Positions 4,302 through 50,925 of a stretch of 64,000 nucleotides of DNA are shown here, in pieces. The translations under genes were made by a program, and so were the position numbers. Origin of the DNA: Nitrospirota bacterium (GTDB taxonomy: Bacteria; Nitrospirota; UBA9217); the NCBI GenBank assembly GCA_963790205.1, contig CAWBNQ010000003.1, forward strand, positions 1-64,000. The letters are read 5' to 3'. Each line of letters opens with the position of its first letter. Positions within the stretch are counted from its first letter, which is position 1. The notes under the pieces were generated by a model. The model saw only the letters and a list, made by a program, of their open reading frames with translations. It ran no database searches and was not told the DNA's origin.

Positions 4302-5768
4302 ATGAAGCACTCTGCCAGTGGGTTTATACTCACGACAATAATTGCTGTCATTGCTCTTCTGTCCGCGACCGGTTTTGCCGGGACGAGCTACTTCGACGTG
4401 GACCGCGAATTCTATCCCTACTATCCGTCCCTGGTGAAGTGGAACAAATCGAATGCTCCCTTCACGGAACCCGCGGTCTGCGCAGGGTGTCATCCGCAGC
4501 AGTACGAGGAGTGGACCGGTTCGGTGCATGCCCTGGCGTTCCAGGACCCGATCTACCAGGGGGAGCTGAACAAGGGGTTCAAGGCCGTGGGCCACGAGGT
4601 CACGCGCCAGTGCGAGGGCTGTCATTCACCCGCCGGCATGGCGACGGGCGAGATCAAAGGCCCCGGCCTCAAGGGCTTGAGCCCCCTGGCCCTGGCCGGC
4701 GTCTCGTGCGACATCTGTCACTCGGTGAGCGGCGTGACCCACTGGCAGACGCCGACCCACGAACCGGAAAACGGATCGTTGGTGCTCACACCCGGCGTGG
4801 AGACGAGCGAAGGCGTGAAACTGATCAAGCGAGGGCCGTGGAAACCTTCGGAGGGATGCGGCGGGGGGTTCCATGACTGCGTCGAGTCGCCGCTTCACCT
4901 GCAGGCCGACCTCTGCGCGTCCTGCCACGACGTCTACCACTATGACAAGCACTTCCCGCTCGAGGCGACCTATCTCGAGTGGAAGCACGGCCCCTATGCG
5001 CAGAAAGGGATCCTCTGCCAGGATTGCCACATGGTCGACACCGCGACGTTCATCCGCTCCGCTGATGCCTTCAAAAAACCCGAGCGCACTGAATATCGCC
5101 ATACCTTCATCGGCGCGAATTATCTTCTCTTCTACCTCGCCGAGGCCGCCGCGCGCAAGGCCGGAGACGAAAAGCTCGCCGCCAACCTGCACCGGAAGTT
5201 CGAGGCCGCGGTGGAACGGCTCAAGGCCGCGGCAGCGCTCGAGCTCTTCCCCGTGTACCGTAAGGGCGCGCTCGCGGAGATCAAGGTCAGGGTGAAAAAT
5301 ATCCGCGCCGGGCATAACCTGCCTACGTCGCTTACGAATGTGCGCGAGATGTGGCTGGAAGTGAGCGCCAAGGACGCCGCCGGCAACCTTGTTGTGAGCA
5401 GCGGCGGCTTCGACAGTCCCGGGACGCTTTTCCCCGACACCCGTTTGTTCAATTCCGAGGGCATGGGCACGGACTTCCATTTTGCCGTTGATCCCTGGGT
5501 GGTAACGGCCTTTTCCCGGAACGATACGATCCCGCCCCGGGGGTATAAAGACGCGTACTTCGGCGTTGCCCCGGTGAAAAAAACGGGAATGGTCACGATC
5601 GAAGCGCGGCTCCGCTACCGCCAGGCAGACCAGAAAACGGCAATGAAGATCCTCGATGAGGTCCCGGAGGACATCAATCTGGAAAAGATCTACGGGATCA
5701 GGTACGCCCCGTCCCTGCCGATCGTTGAGATGGCAGTGAAAAAGGCGAGTTTCAAGAGCAGGCAGTGA
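4302..5768 (+). CDS. periplasmic pentaheme cytochrome c (c554-like family)
   Basis: Signal peptide; five CxxCH motifs (CAGCH, CEGCH, CDICH, CASCH, CQDCH); WxGSxHA and GHNLPT motifs. Confidence 0.9.
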   Translation: MKHSASGFILTTIIAVIALLSATGFAGTSYFDVDREFYPYYPSLVKWNKSNAPFTEPAVCAGCHPQQYEEWTGSVHALAFQDPIYQGELNKGFKAVGHEVTRQCEGCHSPAGMATGEIKGPGLKGLSPLALAGVSCDICHSVSGVTHWQTPTHEPENGSLVLTPGVETSEGVKLIKRGPWKPSEGCGGGFHDCVESPLHLQADLCASCHDVYHYDKHFPLEATYLEWKHGPYAQKGILCQDCHMVDTATFIRSADAFKKPERTEYRHTFIGANYLLFYLAEAAARKAGDEKLAANLHRKFEAAVERLKAAAALELFPVYRKGALAEIKVRVKNIRAGHNLPTSLTNVREMWLEVSAKDAAGNLVVSSGGFDSPGTLFPDTRLFNSEGMGTDFHFAVDPWVVTAFSRNDTIPPRGYKDAYFGVAPVKKTGMVTIEARLRYRQADQKTAMKILDEVPEDINLEKIYGIRYAPSLPIVEMAVKKASFKSRQ

Positions 5769-39704: not shown

Positions 39705-40805
39705 ATACAAACGCACTAAGTAATGTTACAAAGTCGCCTGACTTTGTGCTTTGACCACGAGTCAAGCGTCCTTTGGACCGTTGCCCAGATTGCGTCAAGG
39801 TTATCAAACCACCGGTTGGTAGTTGATTCATAGCGAATCTGGCGCCATATGCGTTCCTGCATATTCAAGGCAGGCTGATATGGTGGTAAGTACACAATCC
39901 GGAGTCGTTTATGCTTTCTGAGAAACTCCCGGATTGGGTCACCCCTATGCCAACGAGCTCGGTCAACATACAGCCAGATAGTGTAGCCACGAAGCTGGCT
40001 ATAAAGGTGCCGCAGCACTTTGAGAAAACCTTCTCGGTTGCCACGTTCCGTTTGGATGACGCCGGCACGAGCCAGAAGAGGAGCCACCCAGCCGGAAACA
40101 TTCAAACGTTTCTGATGCTGGCTGGTTGTCGGCACTTTCAACCGTTTCCCGATGAGCGCCCAGCCGCGGCCAAGCCGAGGGTGCAGAGTAAAACCGCATT
40201 CGTCCTGAAAAACCACAGTTTCTTTAGGACCCAGCGTTTTGAGTTTTTTTTAGGCTCCTGGCAAACTTCTTCGCGTCTTCTGCCTTTGCCTGGAGATAAA
40301 CGTGATTGGCTCGCTTTAACCGATACCCAAGTTGATGCATCCAGTATTGGGCCTGACGGACTTTCAGCTTTATCCCGAACTGGCGCTGTAAATGAGTTGC
40401 CAAAGTGGGGCCATCCCATCGAATACGATTTAAGCCGAACTTCTGGGGCGATTCCTCCAGTTGAAGCTCTAGCTGAGCTACGATCTTAGGAGTCATCCGA
40501 ACTGGACGGCCTGACTGCTTTTTCGGGACAAGGGCTTCTACTCCGTCCTTGTTTACCGCCCGCGTCCAGCGGTTTACGTTCATCCGGGTCTGGCCTAGGA
40601 CTTCTGAGATCCACCCCGGTCGTTGACCCTCCATTACCAAGAGGAGGGTAGCTATCTTTATGCCGATCCAAGCTCCTGGCACCTTCTCTGCGAGGGCCAG
40701 CAATTGCTCTTTGGACACCTTTATTGGGCTTGCAGGGGATGTTTTCATGCCCCCAGAATAACATAAAGTATGGTTAAAGTGTAACAATATTTACTGCGTT
40801 TGTAT
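39705..40805 (-). mobile_element. IS630-family insertion sequence
   Basis: IRs atacaaacgca(c/g)taa at both ends, flanked by duplicated TA. Confidence 0.93.
39716..40748 (-). CDS. IS630 transposase, orfA (HTH) + orfB (DDE) joined by probable -1 frameshift at an A8 run (40244-40251)
   Basis: orfA 40748-40224; orfB FQDE..VDRARWH..LPPYQPALNMQERIW; A8 run in the overlap. Confidence 0.88.
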
Positions 40806-45548: not shown

Positions 45549-45866
45549 TTACCCGCCGAGATATCCGCCGGCAAAGTCGGGAGTCGATGTGTCGGCCGGA
45601 CCCACTGAAACGGTGTTGTCCTCATACTCAGTCTCTGCCGAGCCTTTCCAGTCATAGGAACAGGCATGCGACAGGATCTGGATCTTCCAGTCGATCTGCT
45701 CGACAAGCTCGCCAAGATGCCGCTCGTAGAGCCCGGAAAGATTATCCTGCGCTTTGTAGGTGCGTGCGAGATCGTCCCGCAACGCTTCAATCCTTTTTTT
45801 CACGTCTGAAAGTCCGCTAAATACGTTATCACAAACACCCTTTTTTATGTCTTTAACAGCTGCCAT
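45549..45866 (-). CDS. conserved hypothetical protein
   Basis: GAGGAGG RBS; helical 105-aa protein ending DFAGGYLGG; hairpin downstream. Confidence 0.75.
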   Translation of the reverse strand: MAAVKDIKKGVCDNVFSGLSDVKKRIEALRDDLARTYKAQDNLSGLYERHLGELVEQIDWKIQILSHACSYDWKGSAETEYEDNTVSVGPADTSTPDFAGGYLGG

Positions 45867-46044
45867 AGTTGCCTCCTCACGTAAACGGTCGGCAGAGTGC
45901 ATTTCCTCTCCGCCGCCACACTGTATCGTTTCATACTTATACTATAGCACCTTCCGGCACTCGCCGCGAAAAAAGAGGACCACAATGGTATTTTTTTATA
46001 TGCGTTGCTCGTAGACCGGTCCTCCCGTCCCTTGTTATGAGACA

Positions 46045-46410: not shown

Positions 46411-46549
46411 GAGTATCTTCTCCTCTCTGTCGGTGCCAAGCATATCATGCGGCCGTCTTGACTTTTCCCGTTGATTATTCTTGCGACGGCAACGGAGGAA
46501 TGGTATGCTGTGCCCGACGTCATCAAGTTGGTAACCACGAGGAGGAAGC

Positions 46550-47515
46550 ATGAAACCCAGGTTGATCGCTTCAGTTGCAGTGATGCTGTTTTTTTCAATG
46601 ACATCCCCCTGCTTTGCGGATGTCGACCTGTGCTCTCAGAATGCAGGGCTGGGGAGGACCGCTGACACTATTAAAGAATGCACCCGGCAGATCAACGGCA
46701 AGGTGAAAGCGGAAAATCTTGCGCGCTCCTATCTGTTCCGCGGACTAGCCTACCAGATCACCGGCCGGTTCGACGAGGCCCTGTCCGATTTCACCAAGGC
46801 CATCAAGCTGGCCCCGAAAGACGACAAAGCATACAATGACCGTGGGAGCACCTACCTGATCAAGGGCCGGCTTGACCAGGCCATCGCCGATTTCAACGAG
46901 GCGATCAGGCTGAATCCTAACAACGCGCACGCGTACTTCAACCGCGGAACCGTCAGCCAGGCACTGGGCCGGACCGACCAGGCCATCGGCGATTTCACCA
47001 GGGCGATTGAGCTGGACCCGGCGAATGCACGCGCATATTTGGGCCGTGGGACCGCCTATTTGTCAAATGACAGGACCGAGGAGGCCATCGCGGATTTCAG
47101 CAAGGCCATCGAGCTCAATCCGGGCTACGACGAGGCCTACAGCAACCGCGGTGCCGCCTATATGGCTAAGGGGCAGTTCGACCGGGCCATCCCTGAATTC
47201 AGCAAGGCCGTTGAGCTCAACCCGAACTACGACGAGGCCTACAGCAACCGCGGGGCCGCCTATATGGCCAAGGGGCAGTTCGACCGGGCCGCTGACGATT
47301 ACAGTAAGGCCATCGAGCTGAACCCGAAAGACGCCTCGGCCTATTACAACATGGCCTGTCTTCATTCCGTGAGGGGAAATGTACAAGAATCCTGTACCTG
47401 GCTCCAGAAAGCCGTTGATAAGGGATACGACAAGTGGGAGCACATGAAGAAAGATCCTGATCTTAAGAATGTTCGCGAAGCCGCGTGCTATAAGAAGATT
47501 ATGGAAGGCAAATGA
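46550..47515 (+). CDS. exported TPR-repeat protein
   Basis: Signal peptide; about seven 34-aa AYxNRG..AIADF.KAIELNP repeats; YYNMAC cap. Confidence 0.93.
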   Translation: MKPRLIASVAVMLFFSMTSPCFADVDLCSQNAGLGRTADTIKECTRQINGKVKAENLARSYLFRGLAYQITGRFDEALSDFTKAIKLAPKDDKAYNDRGSTYLIKGRLDQAIADFNEAIRLNPNNAHAYFNRGTVSQALGRTDQAIGDFTRAIELDPANARAYLGRGTAYLSNDRTEEAIADFSKAIELNPGYDEAYSNRGAAYMAKGQFDRAIPEFSKAVELNPNYDEAYSNRGAAYMAKGQFDRAADDYSKAIELNPKDASAYYNMACLHSVRGNVQESCTWLQKAVDKGYDKWEHMKKDPDLKNVREAACYKKIMEGK

Positions 47516-47576
47516 CTTTGAACACGCCCGGTCCGATCGTCGTTGCGAACGGAAAAGGCGTCTCCCCTGAGACAAG

Positions 47577-47612
47577 AAAAAGCCGGCACGGTTCACGTTC
47601 CTGCCGGCTTTT
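47577..47612. terminator. bidirectional intrinsic terminator
   Basis: aaaagccggca...tgccggctttt. Confidence 0.75.
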
Positions 47613-47624
47613 ATTACCGCATAT

Positions 47625-47930
47625 AAAAAAAGGCGTTGCTTCTGGACGCGTATTCAACCCCTCCGTTGCGCCTTCGAGAAGATAGTGCGATAAGCATCGC
47701 ACTCATGTTCCCGGACCTGCGCTGCAGGCCCGGAAGGGCCGGCTTTCCTCACCGGCGTCTTCTTGGGCCTTGGGAACTCCCGCATTCCGGACTTTCGTCG
47801 TCGTGCGGCGGGGGATCCTTGCAGCCTTGCGGCTTTCGGTCCCCTCAGCTCGGGGATGACTCAAAGCCGGCGCTTAAAGTCCTCAACGGATATACATACG
47901 TGAACCTTTCGGTTTCCATCCGGCAACGCC
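47625..47930 (-). ncRNA. unassigned ~300-nt structured RNA candidate, copy A
   Basis: Closing helix GGCGUUGC/GCAACGCC + U7; GNRA hairpins (AACC-GAAA-GGUU, AGCC-GCAA-GGCU, GAC-GAAA-GUC); homologous to 48926-49240. Confidence 0.7.
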
Positions 47931-47952
47931 TTTTTACTATCCTTTTAAATAA

Positions 47953-47962
47953 ATTATACCAC
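47953..47962 (-). promoter_or_regulatory. extended -10 promoter motif (GTGGTATAAT) for RNA copy A
   Basis: Plus-strand attataccac, about 22 bp upstream of the closing helix. Confidence 0.7.
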
Positions 47963-48020
47963 GGTTCCGGAATCATGAAATACTTCCTTAGGATTATTCT
48001 TATAGCGCATCAAGCTTACC

Positions 48021-48740
48021 CTATTCCTTCGAGGCTATAAAAAAAATATTTTGCGTTAAGAACGGAAGGAGGGCTGCCAGCACCGTGTCGATAAGGTTAT
48101 AGGCGGAGCAGAACAGCCTGCTGTTCTTGATAAAATCCGGCAATCCGGAAAGCATGGTCCGGGGCACTGCACTGTACTGGCCGATTTCGAGCAGCCTGAA
48201 ACCGGATTCGTCCAACAAATGAATGACGTCTCGCCTGGCATACAGATAGTTGTGGCGATACCGCGGCAATTTCAAGACGGTGACGAGATATTCTATCCAT
48301 GAATATTTACTGGGCAGGTGAAAGCAAAATAATTTGCCCTTCGGTTTTAATACGCGCTTGAGCTCCCCCAAGGAGGCCAGCTCATTTCCGCCGGTATCCC
48401 TGACATGTTCCAAAACACCGACGGAAAAGACTGCGTCAAAGGTCTCCGGAGCAAAAGGCAAGGAGCAAGGGTCCGTGTGCAGGCGGTAATTAAATGTTGT
48501 CGGCCACTGTCTCCGCAGCTCCGATTCTATCTTAAGGTTGTCCTCGATACTGTAGGCGGTGACGTTCATCCCGTTTTTCAGCAAAAAATACGTAAAGCGT
48601 CCATCGCCGCTGCCCCAGTCCAGGACCGTGGATTGCTGCGGCAGGTTTGCCAGCGTTTTCTCGAAAACGCGGCGATATCCCGCCGCTGTAGTTATATTAT
48701 CGAATAAACCGAGTTGCTTAAGGTCTTGATAAATAGTCAT
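48021..48740 (-). CDS. class I SAM-dependent methyltransferase
   Basis: VLDWGSGDG, LPFAPETFDAV, GVLEHV, RVLKPKG; AT-richer than core genes. Confidence 0.9.
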   Translation of the reverse strand: MTIYQDLKQLGLFDNITTAAGYRRVFEKTLANLPQQSTVLDWGSGDGRFTYFLLKNGMNVTAYSIEDNLKIESELRRQWPTTFNYRLHTDPCSLPFAPETFDAVFSVGVLEHVRDTGGNELASLGELKRVLKPKGKLFCFHLPSKYSWIEYLVTVLKLPRYRHNYLYARRDVIHLLDESGFRLLEIGQYSAVPRTMLSGLPDFIKNSRLFCSAYNLIDTVLAALLPFLTQNIFFIASKE

Positions 48741-48925
48741 GGACCCTCTGTCTCCGAGAGTTTGTTTTATATTTACGGAGTGAAACAGCGTACTATAAAA
48801 AGGGTAAAATTGCAAGAATTTTAGCCGAATTTGGGGCGGGATCCGATTAAGACTTCTTTTACTTCGGGAAGAGGGGACGTCGTCCTTGAATGAGGCGGGC
48901 AACAAGTTTCAGTATCGGGGGAAAC

Positions 48926-49240
48926 AAAAAAAGGCGCTGCCTGCGAACCGGTTTTTAAACATTCCGTCGGGCCATGGTTACTGAGCGGGTACTCAATGTT
49001 CGCTTCTACGGCTCCGCTGAACGGACCCTGCGAAGCTCATTGTCCTTTTGCCCGCTTTCACCGCTGGCTTTGGGGCTTTCGGCTCTTCCGGTCTTACGGC
49101 GACCTGTGCGGCAGCCGGAAGACCGGCCGCTCAACTTGCAGCCTCCTTTCCGGCTTCGGACGCCCGTGATTCCCGGTGCCTGATTCCCCTCATAACGGGT
49201 TTAAAATACATACACCTATCGGTGTTGGTTCGGCAACGCC
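48926..49240 (-). ncRNA. unassigned ~310-nt structured RNA candidate, copy B
   Basis: Closing helix GGCGUUGCC/GGCAGCGCC + U7; ACACC-GAUA-GGUGU; UUUUAAAC/GUUUAAAA; motif order collinear with copy A. Confidence 0.7.
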
Positions 49241-49306
49241 CTGCGAACCTTTCTCTTACTTCACCACTTTCAAAGAACGATCACCATGCCGCTTATCTTT
49301 ATCATC

Positions 49307-49316
49307 ATTATACCAC
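49307..49316 (-). promoter_or_regulatory. extended -10 promoter motif (GTGGTATAAT) for RNA copy B
   Basis: Same attataccac decamer as upstream of copy A. Confidence 0.65.
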
Positions 49317-49356
49317 TTTTATGAATAAGCGGCCGGTATTTTTCGCGAGATTTATC

Positions 49357-49385
49357 TTGACCCCCCGGACAAATGCCTTTAAAAT
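49357..49385 (+). promoter_or_regulatory. sigma70 promoter
   Basis: TTGACC-17bp-TAAAAT just upstream of ATG 49399. Confidence 0.6.
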
Positions 49386-49398
49386 TTCAGCACTCATT

Positions 49399-50925
49399 AT
49401 GACGTCGATACGTCCAACCAAAGAAGCATTTCTCGAAGCAACGGGACAAGGAACGATACTCCCGCTCTCGTTCGAGCTCGGACAGCCGGACCTGACGCCG
49501 GTCGCTGCGCTGGAGGCTGTCCGGGCCGCGGGCCATTCGGCGCTTCTCGAGAGCGCCCGCGTGAACGATAAGACCGGCAGGTATTCGTTCGTCACCGCTG
49601 ATCCGTACCTGATATTCCGCTCAAAAGGTGACACGGTCGAGCTCAGTCTCCCCGCGACCCCCGCGGGCAGATACGGCAGGCGCGCAACGATGAAAAGGAG
49701 GCCGCTCCAAAAACTGCGCGAGCTCATGTCCAATTACCGGACCGCACAGAGACCGGACCTGCCGCCCTTCACCGGCGGCGCCATCGGTTTTTTTTCGTAT
49801 GACTTTGTGCGCCAGTTCGAGAAGCTCCCGCGGAGGGCCGACGCGGATCTCGACATTCCCGAGGCCTGCTTTATCTTCGTGGACCTGGTAATCGCCTTCG
49901 ACCATGTCCTGAACAAGGCCTGGGTGATCGTGAACCCCGGGGCCCGTGAACAGGAGATGGGCTTCCGCAGGCCCGATCCTGGCCAATGGGAGCGGTTCTA
50001 TGATGAAGCAGCGGATAAGCTTATAGCGTACGGCTCGAAGCTCGCGGCAGCGGATAGGAAGGGCGATGTCCTGTTTTCGGGAAAAAGCGATCCCGAACGT
50101 TTCCGCCTCTCGCCGAACATGACAAAAGACCGCTTCGAGTCCATGGTCGCCCGCTGCAAGGAATATATCGCGGCAGGCGACATCTACCAGGCAAACCTCT
50201 CCCAGCGTCTCTCGGTGAACATCGGCGACGCGGACCCGCTCCGTTTGTACAGGATCCTCCGCGAAATCAACCCCTCTCCCTTCGCGGCTTATCTTGATTT
50301 CGGAGAGGTAACGCTCGTGAGCTCTTCGCCCGAGCGGCTCATCCGCCTGAGAAACGGTACGGCTGATACGCGTCCGATCGCGGGCACCCGCAGGCGCGGC
50401 AGGGACCGGGTTGAAACCGAGGAGCTTTCCGCCGAGCTTCTGGCGAATGAAAAGGAGCGCGCCGAGCACATCATGCTCCTGGACCTCGAGCGCAACGACC
50501 TGGGGAAGGTCTGCGATTACGGGTCGGTGCGGGTCGACGAGATGATGGTCGTCGAGGATTACTCGCACGTGATCCATATTGTTTCGAACGTGCGCGGCCT
50601 GCTCACGGCCGGGAGGGACGCCTTCGACCTCGTGCGGGCCGTGTTCCCGGGCGGCACGATCACGGGCGTGCCCAAGGTGCGCTGCATGGAGATCATCGAC
50701 GAACTCGAGCCGGTGGCGCGCGGTCCCTATACCGGCTCCATCGGCTATATTTCAAACGCCGGCGACATGGACCTGAACATCATCATCAGGACCTTCGTGA
50801 TCAAAGACGGAAGGGCGCACCTTCAGGTCGGCGCCGGCATTGTCGCCGATTCCGATCCGGAACGCGAGTACCATGAGACCCTGCAGAAGGCCGAGGCGCT
50901 GAGAACGGCCCTGGAGAGGCTCTAG
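49399..50925 (+). CDS. aminodeoxychorismate/anthranilate synthase component I family (PabB/TrpE)
   Basis: ALLES, GDIYQANLS, NPSPF, SSPER, RPIAGT, KERAEHIML.DLERND, FPGGTITGVPK. Confidence 0.93.
   Translation: MTSIRPTKEAFLEATGQGTILPLSFELGQPDLTPVAALEAVRAAGHSALLESARVNDKTGRYSFVTADPYLIFRSKGDTVELSLPATPAGRYGRRATMKRRPLQKLRELMSNYRTAQRPDLPPFTGGAIGFFSYDFVRQFEKLPRRADADLDIPEACFIFVDLVIAFDHVLNKAWVIVNPGAREQEMGFRRPDPGQWERFYDEAADKLIAYGSKLAAADRKGDVLFSGKSDPERFRLSPNMTKDRFESMVARCKEYIAAGDIYQANLSQRLSVNIGDADPLRLYRILREINPSPFAAYLDFGEVTLVSSSPERLIRLRNGTADTRPIAGTRRRGRDRVETEELSAELLANEKERAEHIMLLDLERNDLGKVCDYGSVRVDEMMVVEDYSHVIHIVSNVRGLLTAGRDAFDLVRAVFPGGTITGVPKVRCMEIIDELEPVARGPYTGSIGYISNAGDMDLNIIIRTFVIKDGRAHLQVGAGIVADSDPEREYHETLQKAEALRTALERL

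Follow-up and report, generated by a model that had tools for sequence, protein, structure and literature searches.

Two stretches of minus-strand DNA, each about 300 nt long, flank a methyltransferase gene in the 64,000-nt piece of a Nitrospirota contig analysed here (the window), and the question raised by this locus is what these two homologous RNA genes, copies A and B (Table 1), encode, and whether the enclosed gene has anything to do with them. The analysis places them in a family of RNAs with a conserved fold, a promoter of their own and a 3' U-tract or terminator, present as a vertically inherited resident copy and as extra copies. Because the RNA is nearly universal, occupies a fixed locus where no cis target is evident, carries antitermination signals of the rRNA type and accumulates as a discrete species, it is very probably a noncoding RNA of ~300 nt that is stable, acts in trans and occurs class-wide.

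Two homologous RNA genes in the window

A first-pass annotation had described A and B from their sequence, and the coordinates, ends and motifs that it gave, including the shared extended -10 element, are present as described. Both copies start with GGCGUUGCCG and end in GCA(A/G)CGCC followed by U7. Their homology is detected by nhmmer (E about 1e-5), which also revealed a third copy, C, in the same genome (C14:139005-139312). Pairwise identity is 51% for A and B, 57% for A and C, and 53% for B and C; the closest relative of B has 83% identity, and the best identity found for A is 58%. An open reading frame common to the copies, which the annotation had not seen, is unlikely, since the lengths of the 86 known copies are spread over three frames (38/25/23). 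Folding z-scores were -4.2 for A and -4.8 for B, with none of 100 shuffles equally stable, and the median over 29 of the 86 copies was -4.95. Against the structural model R3, B scores 298 bits and A 137 bits, both being training sequences of that model.

Three features came to light beyond the first-pass annotation: the boxA leader of B, a separate terminator after A, and the split between resident and roaming copies discussed below. The terminator hairpin 3' of A faces a convergent TPR gene, and a simple terminator scan left it out; its loop exceeds the 3-8 nt limit of the scan.

Table 1. Positions of the RNA genes, their signals and the adjoining genes in the window
Feature	Position	Strand	Details and basis
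Copy B, resident RNA gene, 308 nt	48933..49240	-	closed by helix P1 (GGCGUUGC/GCAGCGCC)
Copy A, divergent roaming-type RNA gene, 299 nt	47632..47930	-	fold as B
U7 tract of B, likely 3' end	48926..48932	-	directly 3' of P1; sequence and contig ends
U7 tract of A	47625..47631	-	after P1; sequence
Extended -10 element of B, GTGGTATAAT	49307..49316	-	66 nt upstream of G1; consensus match only
Extended -10 element of A, GTGGTATAAT	47953..47962	-	22 nt upstream of G1, without boxA; sequence
boxA-like antitermination motif in leader of B, GTTCTTTGAAA	49268..49278	-	motif match to host rRNA operon
Leader repeat of B, GGUUCGCAG	49241..49249	-	duplicates 3' strand of P2; sequence
Intrinsic terminator hairpin beyond A, AAAAGCCGGCA...TGCCGGCTTTTT	47577..47612	-	common to other roaming copies
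Class I SAM methyltransferase, 239 aa	48021..48740	-	Pfam Methyltransf_11, E 5e-15
pabB/trpE-like gene (anthranilate/aminodeoxychorismate synthase component I family)	49399..50925	+	Pfam, NCBIfam

Elsewhere on the minus strand of the window, two adjacent ORFs of 187 and 166 aa (39716-40787) resemble, by eye, a split IS630-type transposase, and an ORF of ~105-117 aa without a Pfam match (45552-45902) lies downstream of an AT-rich stretch. In genome G000, ARAGORN called two tRNA-SeC genes (C1:656899-656993 and C8:121701-121799).

Distribution in the phylum

In 40 relatives, a BLAST-type DNA search with copy A gave no match, and profile models were therefore needed. The three copies A, B and C yielded a sequence-only model that detected the RNA in 63 of the 64 genomes of the family; R3, with its 78 base pairs, detected it in 62, the two missed genomes being 68% and 71% complete. 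The RNA is carried by all 32 good-quality family genomes and by all 28 class genomes of at least 95% completeness; these 28 all belong to this family, which among the genomes searched is the whole class. The distinct full-length copies number 86, measure 288-335 nt, and occur at one to five per genome.

Searches beyond the family gave partial matches at most. No full-length match was found in 114 other Nitrospirota genomes (one 73-nt match, E 0.047), and the sequence-only model R2 gave one partial match in 117 genomes. For 20 genomes of other families, the regions upstream of pabB-like genes gave no remote homologue, and neither did 101 genomes of another phylum (a search run without a positive control) or five further genomes (one 50-nt match, E 0.02); all the whole-genome RNA searches start with a loose first look and may miss remote relatives. 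The RNA was not found in the viral contigs, phages and plasmids searched. A roaming-type sequence pattern occurred at 15 metagenome loci, and among the 118 matches listed for a loose sequence pattern on genome contigs, three were real copies.

Conserved fold and covariation

The consensus structure, built from 31 resident copies, contains a stalk with P1 (8 bp) and P2, the side hairpin P3, and P5; the stalk leads to a three-way junction, from which two long arms extend, built of short helices and of internal loops rich in purines. A further stalk helix, P4, lies outside the R3 model, and its strands pair at -4.7 kcal/mol when cognate versus -3.0 when non-cognate in 71 of the 86 copies, in a test that mis-cut some segments. 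In an alignment of 38 sequences, 87% of the cells are paired and 56 of the 78 pairs show a double change, values reached by none of 500 shuffles, while slid controls pair at 33-44%. As the 78-pair structure was derived from these same 38 sequences, it was tested on 48 held-out copies, which pair at 78% when aligned without structure, against 34-45% when slid. Along the branches of the tree we counted 96 pair-to-pair double changes, compared to 8.2±3.3 with permuted partners (maximum 17 in 200 permutations), and 16 versus 2.9±1.8 on branches leading only to held-out sequences. A strict home-made all-pairs test returned only one pair at E<0.05, although ten of its top 13 pairs belong to the model. 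Compensatory changes are thus present among the homologues. When 76 copies were aligned as a mixed set, the fold was poor (15 pairs), and plain mutual information mainly reflected the split between subtypes.

The helices that the first-pass annotation had equated between A and B fared unevenly in the model-based alignment. Two are homologous: GGAUG/CGUCC of A and GAACC/GGUUC of B form P2, and the CCGUU/ACGG helix is P5. The match of GGCUGCAAG, on the other hand, is out of register: in A it belongs to the 3' side of the arm-1 tip, in B to the 5' side. The hairpins AGUGCGAU/AUCGCACU versus UGAGU/GCUCA are seen in single-sequence folds and are absent from the family consensus structure.

Six of the eight P1 pairs never vary, and U-G variants in P1, seen in 8 of 38 sequences, fit the minus strand as the sense strand. 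Few unpaired bases of the consensus are invariant outside P1. The contrast between an invariant P1 and free covariation elsewhere suggests that P1 may be a recognition site, for a protein or a nuclease. The all-pairs test found no covarying pseudoknot or kissing loop. The arm-1 loop GUUGAGC could pair with a 3' GCUCAAC in many copies, with mixed covariation and in competition with P5/P10, as judged by a check in which many segments were mis-cut.

Such an architecture invites comparison with large, multi-helix, orphan bacterial RNAs such as OLE, ROOL and GOLLD, for which RNA-only complexes have been described, according to the available portion of PMC12286853. The Nitrospirota RNA could likewise be a protein-free or self-assembling structural RNA, serving stress or storage through its own architecture and not by sequestering a core machine; its long irregular helices, its purine-rich internal loops, the GNRA tetraloops at the arm tips of roaming copies (GCAA at the arm-1 tip of A) and the lack of a conserved neighbouring protein gene agree with this. 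However, beyond the missing pseudoknot or kissing loop, the RNA has no Rfam match and is absent from the phage and viral collections searched. OLE, ROOL and GOLLD are also longer than the Nitrospirota RNA; the OLE model has 616 positions. We regard a structural RNA of this type as possible, if somewhat unlikely. The OLE model (RF01071) found no match, the controls being equally without one, and cmscan of the region was negative as well.

Comparison with known RNA families

The first-pass annotation had recognised no known family in A and B, and a covariance-model scan against Rfam 15 agrees: there was no match at the gathering score, and over the RNA bodies none at E<=10. The single weak match in the region (E 3.9) covers the 3' end of A and its terminator. 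When 16 homologue loci were compared with Rfam, the one full-span match was a weak hit to CsrC (16.7 bits against a cut-off of 61, E 0.75). No ribozyme family of Rfam matches the RNA, and it has no similarity to host rRNA, in which the profile found no match.

Several well-known RNAs can be set aside. RNase P, SRP and tmRNA are encoded by separate genes (C1:493598, C1:589094 and C1:171291, respectively). A CsrB/CsrC-type sponge was rejected on GGA counts of 7.9 versus 6.9 expected in the boxA group and 8.3 versus 7.3 in the others, and CsrA was not found in the genome itself. GGA and CsrA aside, mimicry of Shine-Dalgarno or anti-Shine-Dalgarno sequences is unsupported (GGAGG in 16 and CCUCC in 5 of the 86 copies), and we found no complementarity to host rRNA common to most copies, the best 10-mer occurring in 24 of 86. 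A bacterial Y RNA was rejected because Ro60/TROVE was not found in the genome, which is 98% complete (the control matched in 2 of 14).

6S RNA, Ms1 and CoRP feature a large central single-stranded bubble in a rod. A bubble of this type was rejected for the present family, since the region that might form it seems to be paired as P4 and the RNA has a branched shape. The 6S model (RF00013) does not match the RNA, the 6S gene of this genome lying at C14:40269-40450, and the Ms1 model (RF02566) gave no match. The raiA motif (ModT; RF03072) is also abundant and trans-acting, with a conserved closing P1 and no known function, but it is about 200 nt long, has two pseudoknots and a single locus, and occurs in Bacillota and Actinomycetota, as far as the available portion of PMC12968392 describes it. 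The Nitrospirota RNA, in contrast, is about 300 nt long and present in one to five copies, with no pseudoknot detected; RF03072 had no match at E<=1 in its own genome, where the controls matched only below the cut-off, and a low-power search for counterparts of the raiA pseudoknots PK1 and PK2 found no prominent non-nested pair.

A literature search, mostly without subscription papers, found no description of this RNA. Large structured RNAs are uncommon in bacteria, and those that are known have proved to be ribozymes, polymerase regulators or RNA-only assemblies. We place the Nitrospirota RNA, as a family of new structure, in the loosely defined group of large orphan RNAs of bacteria.

Expression in environmental RNA

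Three metatranscriptome runs (X1-X3) from two studies, found using the stretch itself, were compared with window positions 46500-50500 through contigs at 85% likeness. Peak summed contig depth over B and A was 1.17 million and 68,000 in X1, 73,500 and 1,900 in X2, and 259 and 13 in X3, figures that stem from relatives, carry no strand, and represent no true level that could be ranked against rRNA. Depth was 0 over the methyltransferase and over 49314-50385 in the pabB-like gene, and at most 7 in other bins. The share of contigs running on beyond the match was 0, 0.02 and 0.14; some end at 48932-48933 and 47932, and at the 3' end of B contigs of X1 and X3 stop at 48932 and 48933. An automated guess classed X1 and X2 as 'probably DNA'; we read them as RNA because DNA of close relatives would be expected to cover pabB and run into the flanks. 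In these relatives the RNA accumulates as a discrete species. Coverage of both A and B, together with the homologue search and the covariation, agrees with the earlier view that these multi-helix RNAs are a family of paralogues, each transcribed independently.

Two runs also contained a minor share of head-to-tail joints (from 49240 to 48942, to 48932 and to nearby positions), which could be expected of a new ribozyme or processing RNA with a chemistry of its own, possibly one that makes circles, and the size and complexity of the RNA are on the scale of RNase P. However, the commonest joint amounts to ~1% of depth, and the joints coincide with the leader GGUUCGCA repeat of the 3' strand of P2, which makes template switching by reverse transcriptase the simpler cause. 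The scarcity of invariant unpaired bases outside P1 and the lack of a match to Rfam ribozymes likewise make a catalytic RNA very unlikely.

Resident and roaming copies

A divergent pabB/trpE-like gene lies within 900 nt upstream of 54 of the 86 copies, which we call resident; they largely group by genus and include B. Roaming copies fall into a clade of their own, in which genera are mixed, with identities of up to 94% (copy C compared to a copy from another genus), and A sits on a long branch on the roaming side.

The two modes differ in their signals. In 52 of the 86 copies, a GNTCTTT motif, in its fuller form GNTCTTT(GAAA), has its end 15-29 nt upstream of G1. Of the 57 copies that carry a boxA-like motif, 51 also have a -10 match at a distance of 43-72 nt upstream, and three are roaming copies with chance boxA matches. 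In resident copies, U residues follow directly after P1. The motif of the resident leader matches the B. subtilis boxA consensus, AUGAUCUUUGAAA, which binds NusB, as given in the available portion of PMC13753749. The boxA motif of B is found identically in the host rRNA operon, before the 16S gene (C1:1070810; 16S start 1070927) and in the rRNA spacer, although the RNA differs from that operon, with its boxA and NusB-S10 antitermination, in being a stand-alone gene of 300 nt. Genome-wide there are 66 boxA-like strings, mostly by chance. GT(T/A/C)C occurs within the last 14 leader nucleotides of 23 of the 57 boxA copies versus 1 of the 29 others, and the duplex between leader and P2 has an energy of -2.6 kcal/mol versus -1.1 for shuffles; in B, transient pairing of the leader repeat with the 5' strand of P2 is possible.

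Copies without boxA have a -10 element 7-9 nt before G1 in 19 of 29 cases, and most are followed by the shared terminator. The roaming unit is thus a cassette of promoter, RNA and terminator found in varied contexts, as in A and C. The genes downstream of the RNA differ (Rho, YbgC, GlgC, AcsV-like and others), leaving no cis target evident.

Thirteen close roaming copies (L002:7945-8390 and 12 others) have an imperfect direct repeat, TCGTT(T)CCCT, flanking the cassette, and this repeat could mark the recombination ends. Extra copies are often located just downstream of a resident copy, up to three in tandem and each diverged (for example G001:C90:11694-12883 and 4685-4997, or L038; G002:C67:84598 and 87525; G005:C12:350591-351290; G014:C80:45468-46027). 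The resident locus may collect copies, as in the window with B, a passenger gene and A. In G002, a RuBisCO large-chain-like gene adjoins a second RNA copy (L048:4932-6800).

Mobility raises the question of a selfish, non-autonomous, MITE-like element with 8-bp terminal inverted repeats that is transcribed incidentally. The strands of P1 do form an 8-bp inverted repeat, and extra copies occur in varied contexts, sometimes in tandem. Against this, none of the 86 copies has a target-site duplication of at least 5 bp, a mark of the MITE that the first-pass annotation had named as an outcome speaking against a functional RNA. Copy number is low, synteny is fixed in 54 of 86 copies, covariation runs throughout, and roaming conservation extends about 90 nt past P1 on both sides (~90 nt upstream to ~85 nt downstream in the 13 close copies). 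A MITE is largely refuted by these observations, and we consider it highly improbable.

A decoy or defence RNA, a nuclease or toxin sink or an anti-phage RNA that was domesticated once at the pabB locus while spreading variants extend its specificity, would account for other aspects of this mobility. Roaming copies mix genera whereas resident ones follow them, they lie in accessory regions, some adjoining transposase, integrase or HicB-like genes, and a genome may hold up to five full-length copies. Nevertheless, the neighbours of roaming copies have no family in common, and no common partner or toxin gene, among the 59 ORFs scanned of 99 listed; the viral contigs, phages and plasmids searched contain no copy, and the resident copy is nearly universal in the class. 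A defence role therefore appears quite unlikely.

The enclosed methyltransferase

The first-pass annotation had left open whether the methyltransferase is linked to the RNAs. The gene is present in 1 of the 64 family genomes (E<=1e-15) and near 2 of the 86 copies, both in this window, and its GC content is about 0.46-0.49 versus about 0.6 in flanking genes. Because it occurs in just one of these 64 genomes, it is not linked to the RNA; it is an unrelated passenger gene. A riboswitch-like cis-regulatory leader, or an RNA partner of the methyltransferase, could be imagined since B lies 190 nt upstream on the same strand, and the smtA motif ('Soda Lake RNA', HRC-65-1) is a large orphan RNA upstream of a class I methyltransferase (available portion of PMC11109978). 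Yet the gene is rare and, in contrast to the RNAs, uncovered by environmental RNA, which refutes this reading for the family and makes it extremely improbable. According to the same portion of PMC11109978, the smtA motif exceeds 350 nt and occurs exclusively in Thioalkalivibrio, while the present RNA measures 288-335 nt in Nitrospirota and is not consistently located upstream of a class I methyltransferase: a search with the enzyme of the window placed it near 2 of the 86 copies. The likeness is probably a coincidence, given that the methyltransferase here is a passenger. Looking upstream of purH at 30 loci, all from the one taxonomic order searched, did not reveal the smtA-purH locus.

Possible role of the RNA

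If the RNA is, as we think, a stable and trans-acting one, the resident copy would be made like rRNA, with NusB-S10 antitermination through boxA. Most roaming copies start transcription at G1, from which we infer that the resident leader is trimmed and that the mature RNA starts at G1. The RNA would fold once the invariant P1 helix closes. At the weakest step of this scheme, it may bind protein as a scaffold or decoy and so sequester a core gene-expression machine in cells that grow slowly, a role that analogy makes conceivable and that we hold with reserve.

The sequestered machine would most likely be RNA polymerase, in the manner of Ms1 and CoRP, and otherwise ribosomes or translation factors. 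Polymerase is the lead candidate because of this analogy: abundant, lineage-restricted RNAs of 300-500 nt that bind RNA polymerase exist, Ms1 with about 300 nt and CoRP with 516 nt, and CoRP homologues occupy a conserved place in one genus only (available portion of PMC11077062). The Nitrospirota RNA is comparable in size and lineage restriction, but it lacks the large unpaired bubble, its 6S-like candidate region seeming to be paired as P4, and its boxA leader and roaming paralogues have no counterpart in the description that this portion gives of Ms1 and CoRP. The presence of a canonical 6S RNA in the genome and the lack of an Ms1 match also speak against polymerase, which as the specific partner seems unlikely. 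Horizontal spread of copies would also be unusual for an RNA with a pure housekeeping function.

It is also conceivable, though doubtful, that the family represents a new core RNA machine of one bacterial class with a biochemical task of its own and mobile variant cassettes. Such a machine would combine rRNA-type antitermination, levels near those of major stable RNAs and processing at the closing helix; its task would be catalysis or a new ribonucleoprotein, and its variants would be swapped between genera as promoter-RNA-terminator cassettes.

Implications

The RNA is nearly universal in a class of uncultivated Nitrospirota and is seen there as a discrete RNA. Its 86 natural variants make both its structure and its partner directly testable with in vitro transcripts, and the natural contrast between resident and roaming copies can help to show which features are important. 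If true, the presence of an rRNA-type boxA in front of a stand-alone gene for a small RNA would widen the known targets of Nus antitermination.
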